From assembly GCA_964620905.1 (NCBI GenBank), contig CAZUKA010000001.1:90890-154889 (forward strand): a stretch of 64,000 bases of DNA. The letters run 5' to 3'. Both the position numbers and the translations under genes were made by a program. This document shows positions 2,396 to 10,090 of the stretch, one piece after another. Below the pieces are notes generated by a model. That model ran no database searches. It saw nothing but the letters and a program-made list of their open reading frames with translations, and was not told where the DNA came from. Position 1 is the first letter of the stretch, and every line of letters begins with the position of its first letter. The DNA comes from an uncultured Gammaproteobacteria bacterium. GTDB lineage: Bacteria > Patescibacteriota > Patescibacteriia > S139-126.

Positions 2396-3503
2396 TGCGA
2401 GATGTTTATTGGCTGAAAATTATTCGGGGGTTAGTATTTATACTTGGCAGCTTATCAGGGCCATGGTTGCTAAACTGCCTACTGATCAATTTATTTTGCA
2501 GGCAAATAGTTTTAAACCAGTAAATGTTTGCTCTAAAATTGACGAGATTAAAGTTAAAAAATCTATCACTAGGTATCCCAATAAACTCTTAAATTTATCT
2601 ATGGTTTTTTGGCAATTTCCGCAACTTGATCGTTGGTTGGATGGGGTTGATGTTTATTGGGTACCGGGGAATAATTTTATTAGTTTATCCGATCAGGTAG
2701 TCAAAGTTTATACCTGTCACGATTTATCTTGGTTAGTTTGGCCAGAATTTTATTCAGTGCGGGGAAAATGCTGGCATCGTGCTTTACAGTTGGAAAAAAA
2801 GTATACTACTGCTCAAAAAATTATTGCTGTCAGCGAATGTACAAAAATTGATATTTTAAATTTTTTTCCCCAAGTCAAACCAGACAATGTTGTTGTGGTA
2901 CCGTCAGGAATTTCTTATCCCCAGTTAACTCGAGAGCAAAAAGTTGAGGTTCAACGTGAGCTTTCTTTACCGGATCGTTTTCTGCTTTATGTCGGTAATA
3001 TTGAACCTCGAAAAAATGTTTTAGGTATAATTGAAGCTTTTAAAAAATTACAAACCAAACATCCTGATCTTTATTTAGTTTTGGCTGGGGGTAGTGGTTG
3101 GCACAAAAGATATAGCCAACAAGTACAAAAAGCCATTAATACCAATAACCGCATAATATATCTTGGCTATGTTAATGAAGAACAGAAATGGGTATTATAT
3201 AGTCTAGCTCAGGTTTTTTTGTGGCCGTCTTTTTATGAAGGATTTGGTTTTCCGCCACTAGAAGCTATGAGTCAGGGTTGCCCGGTAGTTGTCAGTCAGA
3301 GTGCGTCATTGCCAGAAGTGGTTGCGGCTGCTGGGATATTGATCAATCCTTTTGACCTTCAAGATTTAGTTTTGGCAGTTGATTCTTTACTGACCAATGA
3401 ATCCTGGCGACAACAATTAATTGCCCGTGGTTATCAAAGGGTCAAAGAGTTTAGCTGGGAAAAATCAGCTCAACTAACTAGCAAAGTATTTCAATCAATA
3501 TGA
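2379..3503 (+). CDS. Glycosyltransferase, GT4 family
   Basis: Internal start 'MKIGVDARCL' at 2379 matches the N-terminus of the next paralog ('MKIGIDARLY'). 'FYEGFGFPPLEAMSQGCPVVVSQSASLPEV'. Overlaps the upstream gene by 17 nt. Confidence 0.75.
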   Translation: MKIGVDARCLLAENYSGVSIYTWQLIRAMVAKLPTDQFILQANSFKPVNVCSKIDEIKVKKSITRYPNKLLNLSMVFWQFPQLDRWLDGVDVYWVPGNNFISLSDQVVKVYTCHDLSWLVWPEFYSVRGKCWHRALQLEKKYTTAQKIIAVSECTKIDILNFFPQVKPDNVVVVPSGISYPQLTREQKVEVQRELSLPDRFLLYVGNIEPRKNVLGIIEAFKKLQTKHPDLYLVLAGGSGWHKRYSQQVQKAINTNNRIIYLGYVNEEQKWVLYSLAQVFLWPSFYEGFGFPPLEAMSQGCPVVVSQSASLPEVVAAAGILINPFDLQDLVLAVDSLLTNESWRQQLIARGYQRVKEFSWEKSAQLTSKVFQSI

Positions 3504-4615
3504 AAATCGGTATTGACGCGCGTCTTTACGGCGCTCAAAAAAATAGAGGTTTGGGTCGTTACCAAGAGAAATTATTAACTCATTTACAGACTATTGATAC
3601 TGTTAATGACTACGTAATTTTTTTGCAACCGGATAATTTTGCTGATTTAAAAATAACTGCAAATAATTTTCATAAAGTCAAAGTTAACATACCTTGGTAT
3701 ACTTGGCGTGAACAAACTGTTTGGCCCTGGATTTTGCGTAGTTATAAATTCGATTTGTTTCATTTTCCTCATTTTAATGTGCCGTTTTTTTATCGTCGGG
3801 CGTATGTTGTGACTATTCATGATTTAATCATGACGCATTATACAGATGATCGCAGTACGACTAAAAATAAAATAATTTATCAAATTAAAATTAAAATTGC
3901 TCGTCACTTGGTAAGATTCGCTGCCCGTCGGGCTGAAGCAATATTTTGTCCCTCGGAATTTACCAAACAGGATATTGTACAAAAATTAAAAATCGTACCT
4001 GATAAATGCGTTGTCACCTATGAAGCTGTAGATAAAATGAATTTTTCATCGTCAGGTAATAATTTTGTTTCGCGACCTTATTTTTTGTATGTGGGTGCTG
4101 CTTATCCTCACAAAAATTTAGAAACAATGATCAATGGTTTTTTGGAATTCAATCAGACAAAAAAATATGATTTAGTTTTGGTAGGTCGACATGATTATTT
4201 TTATAAAAAATTGAAGGAAAAAAATAAAAATCAGCCGGAAATAATATTTTTGGGAGAAGTGTCTGATAACCGATTGGCAATACTTTATCAACACGCGCAG
4301 GGCTTTATTTTCCCGTCTTTAGTAGAGGGATTTGGATTACCTCCTTTGGAAGCTATGAGTCAGGGTTGTGTGGTGATTGCTTCCCGGGCCAGTTGTTTGC
4401 CGGAAGTTTTAGGGGAGGCAGTTTTATATTTTTCCCCAGATAATTCTAGTCAATTGGCTGATTGTTTAAATCAATTGCAGTCTGACCAAAATCTACGAGC
4501 TAAATTATTATCGCTTGGTTTTCAGCAAACTGCTAAATATAGTTGGTCCCGGATGGCAGAACAAACTAAGTTAGTTTTTGATGAAATTTTATTAAAAGTA
4601 AAAAATGTTGTATAA
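3500..4615 (+). CDS. Glycosyltransferase, GT4 family (tandem paralog of the previous gene)
   Basis: 'FPSLVEGFGLPPLEAMSQGCVVIASRASCLPEV'. ATGA start/stop overlap with the upstream gene. Confidence 0.75.
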   Translation: MKIGIDARLYGAQKNRGLGRYQEKLLTHLQTIDTVNDYVIFLQPDNFADLKITANNFHKVKVNIPWYTWREQTVWPWILRSYKFDLFHFPHFNVPFFYRRAYVVTIHDLIMTHYTDDRSTTKNKIIYQIKIKIARHLVRFAARRAEAIFCPSEFTKQDIVQKLKIVPDKCVVTYEAVDKMNFSSSGNNFVSRPYFLYVGAAYPHKNLETMINGFLEFNQTKKYDLVLVGRHDYFYKKLKEKNKNQPEIIFLGEVSDNRLAILYQHAQGFIFPSLVEGFGLPPLEAMSQGCVVIASRASCLPEVLGEAVLYFSPDNSSQLADCLNQLQSDQNLRAKLLSLGFQQTAKYSWSRMAEQTKLVFDEILLKVKNVV

Positions 4616-4639: not shown

Positions 4640-7498
4640 ATGAAAAAAAGCTCGACCAAAAAAATAAAACCAGCGGTTAAATTGGTAGTCAAAAATACAA
4701 AGACAACAAAAAAAGTAAAGGCCAACCAAATACCGTCGAGACGAAAAGCAAAAATTTCCCGCCGTCAGTCAGGCACTAGACGGTTACTTAAAAATACTGG
4801 TTTTTTAGTTAAATCCAAACCAACCAAAGTAAAAAAAGTTTTGTCAAAATTATCTCGTTTAGAAGCTGATAGTTTGGCTTTATTTAATGATGATCATGTA
4901 ACCGTTTTTAAAGATTTACAAAAAAATAATTTTGACCAAAAACTAAAATTAGATTCAGCTGCAGATATTGTTAAATCTACCAGCAGTACAACCGAGATAG
5001 CTGGACAAAATGAGTTGATTGTTGATACACAACCAAATGAAATAGGAGCCAAAATTTTATCTGTGCGTCAGCCAGCTCAAAAAATTTCTTCTCCCCACGT
5101 GGTTGATTTAAAGACCAGAGTAGTTTATGAGGACAATAATTATCAGACCGTTGCTCCTCTGACCGCTGCTACTTGGGAAGAAAGAATTTACGCTTGGGAT
5201 AAGAAAATGCAAAATATCAAAACTAACTTTATTACTTCAGATTTGCGTCAACAACAGATTTATAAATCAAATCAAAATAAAAAAGTTGGTTTCTTTTCTA
5301 GGATGATTCGGCGTTTTAGTGGTTGGTTGAGTGCCGGATATTTTTCAATGGTTAATTCTTTTTCCAACTGGGGGGAGACCCAAACAGAAAAAATTTTACA
5401 AACTGCCGCCACTGCTGATACTGATGATTTTGTTGATCAAGTACGACCAGTAAAAAAACGTTTATCACTTTGGCCGCAGGAGCTAGCCGTATCAATGCGT
5501 CTATTTATCATTTTGGCAGTTATTTTAGTTTTACCTTTTCAAGTTTATAATTTTTATTCTGATGTAAAGACACAACAGGAAATGGTTTTGGGAGCTTCTT
5601 CAACAGTTTATAATGATTTTCAGGCAGGTTTCCAAGCCTTTGAAAATTTAGATTTCAGCCAAGCCAGTGATCGGTTTATATCAGCTCAACTTAACTTGCG
5701 CCAAGTTAACGATTGGGTGCAAAAATATCCTTCGTTTTTGTTTATGCTTGCCAAATTTATACCAGGTGCTGGGGGTGAGGTATCAAGTGGTTTAAATTTG
5801 ATGGCCGCGGGTGACAAGATGGCTCAATTGGGAGTGATGCTATCTGATTTATTTACTGATTTACAAGCCAATAGTGGTGATAATTTAGCTGCGCTACAAT
5901 CATTGGAGTCAGGCTTAAATCAAGCAGCGGTTATAATGCAAGAGATTGAACTGATTTTACAAAAAATTGATTTAACTAAATTGCCAGCCAATTATCAGGA
6001 ACAATTTAGTCAATTGAATGAGATTTTACCTATTGCCCGGCAGGTTTTACAGAATGCTAGCTTAGCCAGTGGTTTTAGTGCTGACTTTTTGGGTCGAGAA
6101 CAACCCATGCGTTATTTGTTGGTTTTTCAGAATAGTAATGAATTGAGACCAACAGGAGGTTTTATAGGTTCAATTGCTGAGGTAGATATTAAAGATGCCC
6201 GAGTGCAAAATTTTTATTTACCTCCCGGAGGTGTTTATGATTTACAAGGTAATCTAGAAGTTTTGTTAGCTGCGCCTGAACCGTTGCGTTTATTGAATGC
6301 CAACTGGCAGTTGCAGGATGCCAATTGGTTTTTTGACTGGCCCACTTCAGCAAAAAAAATTATGTGGTTTTACGAAAAGTCGGGTGGTCCGACAGTAGAT
6401 GGAGTAATAGCAGTCAACTCGCAGCTCTTACCAAAGTTATTGCAACTTACTGGTCCAATATATTTAGCGGAGTTTGATCAAATTTTAACGGCTGAGAACG
6501 TTATAGACCAGTTGCAGTATGAGGTAGAAATAAACTATGACCGGTCATTAAACCAACCCAAAAAAATAATTTCCCAACTCATGCCGATTTTACTTGATCG
6601 TTTACAAAAATTGCCGCCGACTGATTTTTTCAGTTTGTTTTCAGTTGTACATAATTCTTTGCAAGCCAAAGAAATTCAATTGTATCATACCAATAGTATG
6701 TTGCAGAAAAAAATTGATACTTTTGGTTTTGCTGGTCAAATTCAACCCACAAATAGAGACTATCTAGCTGTTGTTGATACCAATATCGGTGGTGGTAAAA
6801 CTGACCAAGTGATCGGCAGTCAAGTCTTACTGACTAGCCAAATCGGTCCGCTAGGGGATGTAGTGAATACTCTAAAAATAATCAAACGTCACGATGGTGA
6901 TCCCACTGATCAATTTACCGGTCAAATGTACCGAGATTATCTTCGGATTTATGTGCCACAAGGTAGTCGTTTGCTTTCGGCTAAAGGTTTTACTCCTCCC
7001 GCTCCAACTGAGTATAATCAACCAGCCTCTGGTTTTCAACGAGATGATTATCTTGCTCAGGTAGAAAATAATGAGCGTTTTGATTTAACAACTGGCACCC
7101 GAATTACCGATGAATATGATAAAACCGTATTCGGCAATTGGCTAACACTTAACCCGGGTGAACTAGTAGAAATTGAAATAGTTTATGCTTTGCCAAAAAA
7201 TATTACTTTTAAAAAACAAAATGATGGTAACTTTATTGTTGGCTTAATTGACCAGTTATTGTCTAAATTGAATTTGTCGTTTAGTGCTGAACGCGAAGTG
7301 GCTATGCATACTTTATTTTTACAAAAACAGTCTGGCCAACCACCTTACAATTTTTCGCAGGAAATTATCTTTCCTAGCTCTTGGGAAGTACAGACCAGTG
7401 AACTACTGAAAAATACTACTGCCCAAAGAGACAATCGAGTGTATTATCAAAACCTGATCAAAGCTGATTCTTTGTGGGGATTAATTTTTATCCGTTGA
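4640..7498 (+). CDS. Large membrane-anchored protein with a lysine-rich N-terminal tail; DUF4012-like (assignment recalled from the 'ELRPTGGFIGS' motif, needs checking)
   Basis: 952 aa. First ~75 aa very K/R-rich. Single TM near aa 285 ('LFIILAVILVLPFQVY'). Conserved block 'LLVFQNSNELRPTGGFIGSIAEVDIKDARVQNFYLPPGGVYDLQGN'. Confidence 0.5.
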   Translation: MKKSSTKKIKPAVKLVVKNTKTTKKVKANQIPSRRKAKISRRQSGTRRLLKNTGFLVKSKPTKVKKVLSKLSRLEADSLALFNDDHVTVFKDLQKNNFDQKLKLDSAADIVKSTSSTTEIAGQNELIVDTQPNEIGAKILSVRQPAQKISSPHVVDLKTRVVYEDNNYQTVAPLTAATWEERIYAWDKKMQNIKTNFITSDLRQQQIYKSNQNKKVGFFSRMIRRFSGWLSAGYFSMVNSFSNWGETQTEKILQTAATADTDDFVDQVRPVKKRLSLWPQELAVSMRLFIILAVILVLPFQVYNFYSDVKTQQEMVLGASSTVYNDFQAGFQAFENLDFSQASDRFISAQLNLRQVNDWVQKYPSFLFMLAKFIPGAGGEVSSGLNLMAAGDKMAQLGVMLSDLFTDLQANSGDNLAALQSLESGLNQAAVIMQEIELILQKIDLTKLPANYQEQFSQLNEILPIARQVLQNASLASGFSADFLGREQPMRYLLVFQNSNELRPTGGFIGSIAEVDIKDARVQNFYLPPGGVYDLQGNLEVLLAAPEPLRLLNANWQLQDANWFFDWPTSAKKIMWFYEKSGGPTVDGVIAVNSQLLPKLLQLTGPIYLAEFDQILTAENVIDQLQYEVEINYDRSLNQPKKIISQLMPILLDRLQKLPPTDFFSLFSVVHNSLQAKEIQLYHTNSMLQKKIDTFGFAGQIQPTNRDYLAVVDTNIGGGKTDQVIGSQVLLTSQIGPLGDVVNTLKIIKRHDGDPTDQFTGQMYRDYLRIYVPQGSRLLSAKGFTPPAPTEYNQPASGFQRDDYLAQVENNERFDLTTGTRITDEYDKTVFGNWLTLNPGELVEIEIVYALPKNITFKKQNDGNFIVGLIDQLLSKLNLSFSAEREVAMHTLFLQKQSGQPPYNFSQEIIFPSSWEVQTSELLKNTTAQRDNRVYYQNLIKADSLWGLIFIR

Positions 7499-7556
7499 TT
7501 GAGATTTATTTTATTTTTTAATTTAGCTAATATTAGCCAAATTTTTTAATTGGGTA

Positions 7557-7585
7557 TTGACAAAAATTTTTTTTGGGTGTATAAT
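7557..7585 (+). promoter_or_regulatory. Consensus sigma70-type promoter (TTGACA-17 nt-TATAAT)
   Basis: ttgaca at 7557-7562, 17-nt spacer, tataat at 7580-7585. Lies in a 1-kb ORF-free region. Confidence 0.55.
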
Positions 7586-7591
7586 GATTTA

Positions 7592-7658
7592 TTAATAAAT
7601 TGGAGAGAGAAAATAAGTGGATTTTATATCTCTCCAAGTTCAAGGGAGAGTTTTTTAA
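7592..7658 (+). ncRNA. Candidate small RNA or transcription-attenuator leader: two mutually exclusive hairpins, the second followed by a U-tract
   Basis: Stem tggagaga (7601-7608) / tctctcca (7629-7636). Alternative stem ctctcc (7631-7636) / ggagag (7646-7651) followed by tttttt (7652-7657). Both use the tctctcc strand. Confidence 0.35.
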
Positions 7659-8116
7659 AAATTAAAGGAAGCATGAATTAGGAGGGAAAATTTGGTACTT
7701 ACCAAGTTTATGAGTAAATTTCGTTAGCCCTTTATCCGGTATTCATACTGGGTACGTGCTAAGGAATTTATTCGTTTGACATCCCGCGAGAGCGGGATCA
7801 CTCAAACATTTCCCTCGGAATTTATGTTTTCTTTGTTGGGAGCGGTTATTTGGGGAGAGAGTGACTTGCTCGGCACAAAATATTTTTTTCTGGCCGTCTG
7901 CAGGCTCGCTCCCAAATAACTTTTCCCAAATATTCTTTTCAGTTCTGGGCGTGAATATGCTTTTGCATAGCTCATGCCTTGAACTGAGGAGAATAGCCAG
8001 GTACAATACAATAAAACCAATAAAATCCTGGCAAAAAATTTAAAATAAAATACTGATGACGAATGCGGCGCCCAAATTTTTAGTCAAATTAAATGACTAC
8101 AAAGCTGACATTCGCC

Positions 8117-8229
8117 CTCAGTAATCTGGGTGCTTGGTTCGAGGCTAGTCGGTTGTCCCGCATTTGCGGGAAAATCTCTCTCCTCACAGCCGACCATGCA
8201 ATTCTAGAACCAAGCCCCAGATTAGTGAG
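8117..8229 (+). repeat. 113-nt imperfect palindrome (about 22-bp closing stem) enclosing nested hairpins and a CU-rich single strand
   Basis: Left arm ctcagtaatctgggtgcttggttc (8117-8140) vs reverse complement of gaaccaagccccagattagtgag (8207-8229): one mismatch and one bulge. Inner hairpin tcccgc-attt-gcggga (8156-8171). 'ctctctcctca' at 8177-8187. Confidence 0.5.
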
Positions 8230-8261
8230 TAATTTATATAACTTAAATTTAAGGAGTAAAG

Positions 8262-8414
8262 TTGGAATCATTAAATAGACCCGGAAGATTTTTTTATATA
8301 CTTTTTATTTCAACTATTGCTGTTATAATTTGGGGTTATCCCATTTTAATTTTGATTTTATTATTACTTACAGATGCTAAAGAAGTAAAAAGAAGTAAAA
8401 AAATTAAAAAATAA
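8262..8414 (+). CDS. Putative 51-aa single-TM membrane peptide (TTG start)
   Basis: RBS aaggag (8251-8256) 5 nt before TTG. Translation 'MESLNRPGRFFYILFISTIAVIIWGYPILILILLLLTDAKEVKRSKKIKK*'. Intrinsic terminator immediately downstream. Absent from the ORF track, which lists ATG starts of 60 aa or more. Confidence 0.3.
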   Translation: MESLNRPGRFFYILFISTIAVIIWGYPILILILLLLTDAKEVKRSKKIKK

Positions 8415-8424
8415 ATGATTTATA

Positions 8425-8451
8425 AAACTACTTGAAAAAGTAGTTTTTTTA
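8425..8451 (+). terminator. Rho-independent terminator
   Basis: aaactactt-gaaa-aagtagttt followed by tttt. Confidence 0.6.
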
Positions 8452-8491
8452 TCTTTAAAACTTTTAATTTTTATGTTAAAATATTTACATA

Positions 8492-10090
8492 ATGCTAGAA
8501 AAAATTTGGTTTAAATTGAATAATACCACAACCGGCGGGGCAATCTTGATTGCCTTTTTTTCTGTATTTGCCAAAATTATTGGATTATTTAGAGATCGAT
8601 TATTGGCCGCAAATTTTTCAGGAAGTAATATTGATATTTTGGATGTGTATTATGCCGCGTTTAAATTGCCGGATTTAGTTTTTAATACTTTGGTATTGGG
8701 AGCACTGGCTTCTGCTTTTATTCCCGTGTTTGTAAAATATTTACAAAAAAATAAGGACGAGGCCAACCAAATTGCCAATTCACTTCTCAATTTATTATTG
8801 CTGGTTGTGGGTGTATTGACAGTGGTATTTATAGTTTTTGCTCCTTGGTTTACTCATCTAGTTGTACCGGGTTTTAGTGGTGATAAATTTGAGCTAACCG
8901 TCAGATTTACTCGAATTATGTTTTTGGCTATTTTATTTTTTACGGTTTCCAATGTTCTCTCGGGAATTTTAAATTCTTATAAAAAGTTTTTATCTTTTTC
9001 TTTAGGGCCAATTTTTTATAATTTTGGAATTATTCTGGGTATTTTATTTTTTACTAAATTTCTGGGCCCAGAGGGTCTGGCGTGGGGTGTGGTTTTTGGT
9101 GCTTTGCTGCATTTATTGATTCAGTTGCCAGAAACATTTACAACGGGTTGGCGTTATCGATTTGATTTTTTCTTTAAACATCAAGCGGTGAGACGCATAA
9201 TCACTCTGATGATACCAAGAACATTTGGTTTGGCGGTGGCACAAGTCAATCAAGTAGTAACGGTGATCATTGCTTCTACTTTAACCGCTGGATCAGTCGC
9301 ATATTTTAATTTGGCCAATAATTTACAGTCTTTCCCGATTTCTGTTTTTGGTGTGTCAATTGCTATCGCCTGTTTTCCTGCCTTTTCCCAAGCTTTTGCT
9401 GAAAAAAATCAAGAAAAATTTATGGTCAGTTTTAGTGTCAATTTCAGGCGTATTTTGTACTTGATTGTGCCTTTTTCAGTTTTTCTACTTTTACTGCGAG
9501 CACAAATTGTGCGGTTGGTTTTGGGAACCGGCAATTTTACCTGGACTGATACTATCCAAACCGCCCAAACTCTGGGTTTTTTTTCCTTGTCTTTATTTGC
9601 CCAAAGTTTAATCCCACTTTTATCCAGATCCTTTTATGCTTTTGAAGATACCAAGACGCCGGTGATAGTTAGTATATTTTCTTTTTTAGTAAATATTATC
9701 GGAGCAATTGTTTTGGGACAAAAGTTTGGTATTTTTGGCGTGGCCGTAGCTTTTTCTCTTGCCTCGATTTTAAATTTTATAGCCTTACTTACTATTTTAA
9801 GGTTTAAAGTAGGTTATTTGGATGATAAAAAACTGGCTTGGTCTGCCTTGCAAATAAGTTTTTTAAGTTTACTTTGCGGTTTATTGGGTTATCTGGTGAT
9901 GCATGTCGTTGCGCCACTGGTAAATATGCGTACTTTTTGGGGAATTTTTATTCAAACTATTAGCACCTTGTTTATTGGTGGCGGGGCTTATATAATACTG
10001 TCAGTTTTATTTAGATTTGAAGAAGTTGAGATTATTGGTAAATTTTTTGGAAGATATTTGAAGATTTTTCAGAAGAATAATGGCAACTAA
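8492..10090 (+). CDS. murJ: Lipid II flippase MurJ (MviN)
   Basis: N-terminus 'GGAILIAFFSVFAKIIGLFRDRLLAANFSGSNIDILDVYYAAFKLPDLVFNTLVLGALASAFIPVF' is characteristic of MviN/MurJ. About 14 TM segments. Confidence 0.85.
   Translation: MLEKIWFKLNNTTTGGAILIAFFSVFAKIIGLFRDRLLAANFSGSNIDILDVYYAAFKLPDLVFNTLVLGALASAFIPVFVKYLQKNKDEANQIANSLLNLLLLVVGVLTVVFIVFAPWFTHLVVPGFSGDKFELTVRFTRIMFLAILFFTVSNVLSGILNSYKKFLSFSLGPIFYNFGIILGILFFTKFLGPEGLAWGVVFGALLHLLIQLPETFTTGWRYRFDFFFKHQAVRRIITLMIPRTFGLAVAQVNQVVTVIIASTLTAGSVAYFNLANNLQSFPISVFGVSIAIACFPAFSQAFAEKNQEKFMVSFSVNFRRILYLIVPFSVFLLLLRAQIVRLVLGTGNFTWTDTIQTAQTLGFFSLSLFAQSLIPLLSRSFYAFEDTKTPVIVSIFSFLVNIIGAIVLGQKFGIFGVAVAFSLASILNFIALLTILRFKVGYLDDKKLAWSALQISFLSLLCGLLGYLVMHVVAPLVNMRTFWGIFIQTISTLFIGGGAYIILSVLFRFEEVEIIGKFFGRYLKIFQKNNGN

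Follow-up and report, generated by a model that had tools for sequence, protein, structure and literature searches.

The hairpin between the DUF4012 and MurJ genes as the likely 3′-terminal domain of a large structured non-coding RNA

Gene order and transcription signals at the locus

The window (by which we mean the whole 64-kb stretch of DNA that was analyzed) is tightly packed with genes, and contains only one long non-coding gap, a 993-nt interval (7499-8491) that separates a DUF4012 gene (4640-7498, recognized by its Pfam match) from the gene for MurJ (8492-10090). The hairpin that we followed up lies within this gap of approximately 1 kb, where it closes a series of about seven long helical domains (Table 1). 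Upstream of the DUF4012 gene, we also noted an 85-nt direct repeat (3207-3291 and 4295-4379, 73% identity), which corresponds to two tandem paralogous GT4 glycosyltransferase genes and is ordinary.

The gap displayed transcription signals of its own. A perfect TTGACA-17-TATAAT promoter was found at one site in the 64 kb, against 0.07 sites expected by chance, and TTGACA, the 17-nt spacer and a TATAAT-like box were kept in every homologue, including the distant members of the series described below (L030, L032, and L034; relatives are referred to by locus number). The palindrome that precedes this promoter was perfect in L003, L004, and L007, with related palindromes in L011 and in the distant L034, and it may act as an operator-like site to which a regulator binds, or else weakly terminate transcription of the DUF4012 gene. 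We placed the ends of the transcript from the promoter and terminator sequences alone. On this basis, the 5′ end of the RNA would lie about 7 nt past the -10 box and the transcript of the window lineage probably extends as far as the terminator at 8424-8450; the 3′ boundary given for the RNA (8229) is the end of its last conserved helix. MurJ has a promoter of its own, and its mRNA may be nearly leaderless, since the ATG is only about 9 nt past the -10 box. We considered and rejected the possibility that the RNA is a MurJ leader, as the terminator and the MurJ promoter intervene, and as in L030 the RNA lies downstream of MurJ on the other strand.

Table 1. Positions of the features identified in the gap between the DUF4012 and MurJ genes, with the basis for each.
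Feature	Positions	Strand	Basis
Palindrome TTAGCTAATATTAGCCAA	7523-7540	+	About 17 nt upstream of the -35 box of the RNA promoter
Sigma-70 promoter: TTGACA, 17-nt spacer, TATAAT, with TGTG before the -10 box	7557-7585	+	Consensus match (12/12)
Structured non-coding RNA, whole (~640 nt)	7592-8229	+	Fold; covariation in alignment A2; negative Rfam search
5′ hairpin P1: GGAGAGAG (7602-7609) x CUCUCC (7630-7635)	7602-7635	+	Helix 1 of the consensus
Multi-branched domain 2	7664-7834	+	Helices 2-9, many compensatory pairs
Domain 3, long helix 7837-7862 x 7904-7928	7837-7928	+	Helix 10, 7/22 pairs changed on both sides
GA-rich strand UGGGGAGAGAG	7851-7861	+	Invariant in alignment A2
Hairpin 4, with invariant GGGCGUGA, UCAUGCC, and GAGGAGA	7936-7990	+	Helix 12, 8/23 pairs compensatory
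Hairpin 5, GCCAGG x CCUGGC around an A-rich loop	7996-8032	+	MFE fold
Hairpin 6, 8060-8069 x 8104-8114, variable loop	8060-8114	+	Helix 13, 99.1% of cells paired
Hairpin under study, likely 3′-terminal domain	8117-8229	+	Fold statistics; alignment A3; covariance model R1
CU-rich strand AAAAUCUCUCUCCUCA, 3′-side bulge between the apical and inner stems	8171-8186	+	MFE folds; alignments
RBS AAGGAG (8251-8256) and 50-aa hydrophobic ORF, TTG at 8262	8251-8414	+	ORF listing
Intrinsic terminator AAAACUACUU-GAAA-AAGUAGUUUUUUU, likely transcript 3′ end in the window lineage	8424-8450	+	Inverted repeat I20 followed by a T-run
MurJ promoter, extended -10, TTTATGTTAAAAT	8454-8482	+	Conserved in L004, L007, and L026

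Examination of the hairpin confirmed the geometry given for it in the first-pass annotation: the outer stem is formed by arms of 24 nt (8117-8140, CTCAGTAATCTGGGTGCTTGGTTC) and 23 nt (8207-8229, GAACCAAGCCCCAGATTAGTGAG), and comprises 22 pairs, one G.G mismatch (8121/8225), and one bulged T/U (8131). An internal loop (GAGGCUA, 8141-8147, opposite CAUGCAAUUCUA, 8195-8206) connects it to two further helices that had not been recorded, an inner stem of 8 bp (8148-8155 x 8187-8194) and an apical stem of 6 bp (8156-8161 x 8166-8171). Within the internal loop, both GAGGCU(A/G) and CCAUGC are conserved, and neither has an obvious RNA partner. In the minimum-energy fold, a 15-16-nt stretch (8171/8172-8186) is unpaired and includes CTCCTC (8180-8185), in agreement with the earlier remark that the hairpin exposes a ctcctc element. 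The + strand RNA of the hairpin folded with an MFE of -59.3 kcal/mol, compared with -28.8 +/- 3.4 kcal/mol for 200 shuffles (z -8.9), none of which (0/200) folded as well; the - strand folded nearly as well as the + strand, at -56.4 kcal/mol. For the 673 nt downstream of the promoter, the corresponding values were -266.8 kcal/mol and -164.9 kcal/mol for shuffles (z -19.6). We also observed that 8051-8065 (ACUGAUGACGAAUG) is able to pair with 8109-8123 (CAUUCGCCCUCAGU), a segment that includes the opening bases of the hairpin (8117-8123); this alternative pairing would compete with the hairpin base.

The hairpin was not called in our terminator scan, and its stem is followed by TAATTTATATAAC, with no direct U-tract, as had been stated before. 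We therefore rejected the hairpin itself as an intrinsic (Rho-independent) terminator; the terminator identified in the gap is the separate one listed in Table 1.

Conservation of the RNA and selection on its structure

We gathered relatives of the locus by protein search with MurJ, which yielded a graded series of homologues whose contigs were then compared; about 12 distinct lineages make up the whole comparison sample. All relatives down to 72% MurJ identity displayed a DUF4012 gene, a gap of 790-1170 nt, and MurJ, in that order, and the gap sequences were homologous. The conserved part of the RNA measures approximately 640 nt in the window organism and roughly 375 to 670 nt among its relatives as a whole. 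Where MurJ was 86-89% identical and DUF4012 only 55-59% identical at the amino acid level, the RNA displayed approximately 80% nucleotide identity. The hairpin was the best-conserved part of the RNA and gave the strongest blastn match remaining in the 72% lineage (L011). Wherever it was found, the remainder of the RNA gene accompanied it, and down to this level of MurJ identity its position was the same in every relative. In L011, a JGI gene call of 406 nt with a 30-residue product (5333-5738) lies atop the RNA homologue, and is probably an annotation artefact. Separately, L017 (CAZBLW010000003.1) is labeled as a MAG of an uncultured Gammaproteobacteria, yet displayed the Paceibacter-type synteny of DUF4012, RNA, MurJ, and LepA, with proteins 86-88% identical to those of the window, and this contig was probably misbinned.

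To reach more distant members, we searched loci L030-L034, L037, and L038 with the hairpin covariance model, its filters switched off, and this added three lineages (L030, L032, and L034), the first of which was also recovered by nhmmer with the full RNA alignment. L030 (MurJ 68%) scored 74.6 bits, and its RNA gene has moved to the far side of MurJ, where it lies on the opposite strand. L032 and L034 (MurJ 57%; the latter is the lineage whose MurJ is named Parcubacteria GW2011_GWA2_43_17 in one source) scored about 37-41 bits and still carry the RNA between DUF4012 and MurJ. Because these two scores were no higher than the reverse-strand echoes of true members, we based the membership of L032 and L034 on the features that they share with the family: synteny, a TTGACA-17-TATAxT promoter, a GGAGGGAGAGAGAG element at the 5′ side, the GA-rich element, the architecture of the hairpin, and an identical AAAAUCUCUCUCCUC bulge. 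The same unpaired strand, AAAAUCUCUCUCCUC, was invariant in L030 as well, and the RNAs of L030, L032, and L034 folded beyond their shuffles, with z-scores of -14.0, -7.6, and -11.7. In L038, a relative with 56% MurJ identity, the gap measured only 79 nt and the whole RNA gene was absent from the orthologous site.

Two further observations concern these distant loci. In L030, a ~100-nt repeat array at about 4700-5130 (minus strand; GTCGGAATGACAA ... GTCATCCCGAG.GAAGTCGAGGGATCTCTT) adjoins the relocated and inverted RNA gene between MurJ and LepA; it looks like genuine dispersed or tandem repeats and may be linked to the rearrangement. LepA itself appeared fragmented in L034 (8673-10556, GCA_003450745.1, 364 + 195 aa) and in L036 (9873-10406, GCA_001001425.1, only a 177-aa C-terminal piece) and intact (589 aa) in the near-identical L035 and L037, and the fragments could be assembly errors or pseudogenization.

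Searches for a second copy of the hairpin at any one locus returned none. The arm, allowing up to three mismatches, had no second copy in the 64-kb window, and covariance model R1, run over the window and the loci of close relatives, gave one + strand match per locus and no second copy. Our repeat checks also comprised a repeat search of the whole window and blastn against phage and plasmid collections, in which neither phage nor plasmid records matched the RNA, and no direct repeat suggestive of a target-site duplication flanked 8117 and 8229. A scan of GTDB representative genomes with an exact pattern drawn from the invariant loops identified two true matches, at one site each, in a Candidatus Paceibacter MAG and in a Gammaproteobacteria-labeled MAG with the same synteny; three more true matches came from JGI metagenomes, and the scan of viral contigs gave no true match. 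Every true match was a single copy with the same DUF4012-MurJ synteny. We set aside as chance matches the Clostridia/Bacillota loci L014, L015, and L018 and eight metagenome loci, which displayed neither the hairpin nor similarity outside the pattern. Candidatus Paceibacter is placed by NCBI in Minisyncoccota (formerly Parcubacteria), within the candidate phyla radiation.

We then compared the structure between homologues. For the whole RNA (alignment A2, 11 sequences), the RNAalifold consensus contained 167 pairs, 54 of which displayed compensatory double changes, and by an independent count 96.3% of cells were paired. When the partners were slid by 1-3 columns as a control, only 2-15 pairs changed on both sides, and 0/500 column shuffles reached the observed values. 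For the hairpin alone (alignment A3, 9 distinct sequences), 11 of 38 pairs were compensatory and 99.4% of cells were paired, compared with 0 compensatory pairs in the slid controls. As an example, GCUUGGUUC/GAACCAAGC of the window is replaced in L011 by UUCUAAGACUU/AAGUCUUAGGG, with a matching 2-nt insertion in both arms. The hairpin also contains several G.U pairs (e.g., 8153/8189) that are compatible only with the + strand, and its covariance model R1 scored 138.8 bits on the + strand and 37.9 bits on the - strand. From the G.U pairs, the strand scores, and the compensatory changes, we concluded that selection acts on the + strand RNA and not on a DNA palindrome. The hairpin is thus a conserved structure at the level of RNA, on the + strand, and in single copy. 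We also considered protein coding of the region, which we rejected: only short, unconserved ORFs were present, and the apical loop displayed a 1-nt indel between the window and L003, which are 98.6% identical across the gap, and therefore no reading frame spans the hairpin.

Conservation within the RNA was concentrated in particular elements. The CU-rich strand was unpaired in the MFE fold of 12/12 lineages, with CUCUCUCC identical in all 12, and in the alignments it was invariant save for one U/A position. Domain 2 (helices 7664-7675/7823-7834, 7677-7686/7812-7821, 7688-7709, 7712-7773, and 7774-7807) contained invariant GGAGGG, GAUCACUCAAAC, and UUCCCUC sequences. The closing helix of domain 3 covaried, with GGGGAG/CUCCCC in L030 vs. 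GGAGGG/CCCUCC in L032 and L034, and the GGGAGAGAG core of the GA-rich strand was found in all three of these lineages. Hairpin 5 appeared in relatives as GCAAGG/CCUUGC, a C-G to A-U exchange that we read directly from alignment A2, since MAFFT had misaligned this region and RNAalifold consequently lacked the helix. P1 was restricted to close lineages, being missing from L030, L032, and L034.

Between the RNA and its terminator, the window encodes a small ORF (8262-8414) whose product contains two hydrophobic segments and which is preceded by a good RBS, the aaggag at 8251 to which the first-pass annotation had pointed, and this ORF is probably co-transcribed with the RNA. It was homologous to an ORF of L020 (61% over 36 aa, E 5e-15). 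At the same place, L004, L009, and L017 displayed different hydrophobic ORFs, unrelated to that of the window, and L007, L016, L026, L011, and L030 displayed no ORF; in L007/L016, L026, L011, and L030, an intrinsic terminator lies directly 3′ of the hairpin. In total, a hydrophobic ORF was present on the transcription unit in 7/12 lineages, not all of them homologous, and the product of the window ORF had no Pfam family match. We concluded that the small ORF is a lineage-variable accessory of the locus and not the reason for the hairpin.

Identity and proposed working of the RNA

We compared the region with known RNA families. At the gathering score, none of the 4227 families of Rfam 15 matched in the region, in the window or in its homologues, and at E-values up to 10 (window and three homologue sets) we obtained only scattered miRNA-type hairpin matches that differed between homologues. 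The covariance models of OLE, ROOL, GOLLD, HEARO, 6S, RNase P, tmRNA, and SRP gave no match in the region, ARAGORN detected no tRNA or tmRNA in it, and full-text literature searches found no description of the RNA. A hammerhead (suggested by CUGAUGA at 8052) and a C/D-box k-turn were rejected by eye, as the required GAA and box-D geometry were absent. The RNA displayed the features of the large-structured ("ornate") non-coding RNA class, namely a length above approximately 400 nt, covarying helices, invariant unpaired nucleotides, and transcription signals of its own, and we regard it as probably a new family within a general kind of large non-coding RNA that is already known.

We next asked with what the invariant CU-rich strand might pair, by calculating its duplex energy with every 15-nt window across the 64 kb (12,797 windows). 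The best partner was the GA-rich strand of the same RNA, UGGGGAGAGAG (7851-7861), at -19.1 kcal/mol, compared with a 1st percentile of -10.1 kcal/mol; with a 19-nt query, this duplex reached -19.3 kcal/mol. The P1 strand GGAGAGAG (7602-7609) was also among the top four partners, and the GA-rich element was present in all lineages, whereas P1 was not. Given that the GA-rich strand was the best duplex partner and that its element occurs in all lineages, we infer that the CU strand most likely pairs with it over a distance of approximately 320 nt. Both strands are invariant, and covariation is therefore uninformative on this pairing. A predicted local helix with CUCCC, which does covary, also draws on the 5′ portion of the GA strand, and the two interactions would therefore be in partial competition.

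Taken together, we consider it likely that the gap carries a single-copy gene, inherited vertically, for a large structured non-coding RNA, with a consensus sigma-70 promoter and an intrinsic terminator of its own, and that the hairpin is the 3′-terminal domain of this RNA and the best conserved one; we propose that the CU and GA strands of the RNA pair. The hairpin would be a rigid support from which the invariant CU-rich stretch of 15-16 nt projects as a single strand, and this strand would pair with the RNA's own GA-rich strand UGGGGAGAGAG. Within one molecule, such pairing would form a long-range pseudoknot and thereby fix the successive helices in a compact arrangement; between two copies, it would link molecules to one another. 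Alternatively, the CU strand could bind SD-like sequences of mRNAs in trans, or a protein.

Alternative readings and relation to known RNAs

A more specific possibility, which we hold to be less likely than not, is that Paceibacter-like members of Minisyncoccota (Parcubacteria, candidate phyla radiation) have in this RNA an undescribed class of large structured RNA that is peculiar to them. Such an RNA may be kept in these ~1-Mb genomes for a housekeeping or envelope-linked role, it may act with the small membrane peptide encoded beside it, and its GA and CU strands might switch between conformations or join copies into multimers as in OLE, ROOL, and GOLLD. Like OLE, ROOL, GOLLD, and HEARO, the RNA is several hundred nt in size, contains many covarying helices and invariant unpaired blocks, and occupies a stand-alone gene of restricted phylogenetic distribution. 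Next after OLE there is typically a gene for a small membrane protein (oapA), and in many lineages a small hydrophobic ORF likewise lies 3′ of the RNA. According to one account, GOLLD, ROOL, and OLE form homo-oligomers (PMC12286853), and the self-complementary GA/CU strands could in principle allow the RNA to do likewise. The RNA differs from OLE, ROOL, GOLLD, and HEARO in that it displayed no sequence or structure homology to them even at E-values up to 10, and its host here belongs to Minisyncoccota/Parcubacteria.

Staphylococcus aureus RNAIII and similar sRNAs of Firmicutes bind SD regions through unpaired C/U-rich motifs. We regard it as rather unlikely that the RNA acts in this manner, as a trans-acting regulator whose CU strand blocks or modulates the SD regions (GGAG, GAGGAG) of mRNAs and which in some lineages also encodes a hydrophobic peptide. 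The likeness lies in a chain of hairpins, in an unpaired pyrimidine motif that is complementary to the SD and in a peptide gene in some lineages; the strong promoter, the single-stranded and invariant state of the CU strand, its complementarity to GAGGAGAGA, and the good RBS of the small hydrophobic ORF found on the transcription unit in 7/12 lineages would also be in keeping with such a role. However, the best complements of the CU strand in the window were inside the RNA itself, and no gene start in the window emerged as a target; the covarying structure of ~640 nt far exceeds what a seed-presenting sRNA needs; and conservation of the small ORF does not extend to the whole family, the peptide gene being dispensable. 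The RNA also lacks homology to RNAIII, and its pyrimidine strand is a helix-internal bulge, unlike the hairpin loops in which RNAIII and the other C/U-rich-loop sRNAs carry theirs.

It is improbable that the role of the hairpin is confined to protecting or defining the 3′ end, in a terminator-like or exonuclease-blocking manner, with its conserved loops bound by protein and not by RNA. The hairpin is always the last domain, its GAGGCU(A/G) and CCAUGC loops lack an obvious RNA partner as noted above, and in L032 and L034 the outer stem ends in a U-rich run that may itself terminate transcription. Yet the hairpin of the window has no U-tract and a separate terminator is present, and 16 + 7 + 12 invariant unpaired nucleotides are more than a simple protective stem would require.

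We consider it very improbable that the hairpin exerts cis-acting control over translation of the small ORF, with CUCCUC sequestering or mimicking the AAGGAG at 8251. Such a function formed part of the earlier suggestion of an anti-SD-presenting stem, of which one half stood, the stem indeed presenting an unpaired CU-rich strand with CUCCUC that is invariant in 12 lineages. The hairpin lies 21 nt from the RBS, CUCCU can pair with AGGAG, and the small ORF is conserved between the window and L020. The sequestering half did not survive comparison between lineages: the hairpin and bulge were unchanged in L007/L016, L026, L011, and L030, in which a terminator takes the place of the ORF and RBS, and because four close lineages and L030 keep the strand without the ORF, regulation of the small ORF through its RBS is unsupported. 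The duplex of the CU-rich strand with the RBS reached only -6.7 kcal/mol, vs. -19.3 kcal/mol with the RNA's own GA-rich strand, and the ORFs of L004, L009, and L017 are unrelated to that of the window. This reading is thus largely refuted by the lineages without the ORF. The locus also resembles type I toxin mRNAs with fold-back anti-SD elements, such as hok, in that a structured RNA precedes a hydrophobic ORF of ~50 aa and contains a CU-rich element able to pair with an SD; it differs from them in that the RNA persists without the ORF in several lineages, no antisense RNA gene is evident, and the structure is far larger than a toxin leader.

Finally, the first-pass reading of the palindrome as a MITE-like or REP-type element inserted between genes, which called for further copies of the arm, can be practically dismissed, for although the hairpin shares with MITEs, REPs, and other palindromic repeats a long, near-perfect intergenic inverted repeat, and although the RNA gene is missing as a whole from the orthologous site of L038 and is relocated and inverted beside a repeat array in L030, we found one copy in 64 kb, only two genomes with single-site matches in GTDB, single syntenic copies besides chance matches in the GTDB, JGI, and viral scans, no viral, phage, or plasmid match, no target-site duplication at the arms, a divergence of the RNA that follows that of host genes, and, in the comparison of orthologous intergenic regions, arms that are conserved in relatives and covary, with compensatory changes and G.U pairs that reflect RNA-level selection within a larger transcription unit.

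Returning to the reading that we prefer, in which the hairpin is a domain of a large structured non-coding RNA, we note that large structured RNAs of unassigned function are rare, and that OLE, ROOL, GOLLD, and HEARO each opened new biology. The genomes of the candidate phyla radiation are very small and dense, and their hosts are mostly uncultured and poorly understood. That approximately 1 kb of such a genome is spent on an RNA that is better conserved than the adjoining protein gene points to an important function. With its invariant 16-nt CU strand and 11-nt GA strand, the RNA family is a defined object that is open to mutation and probing.
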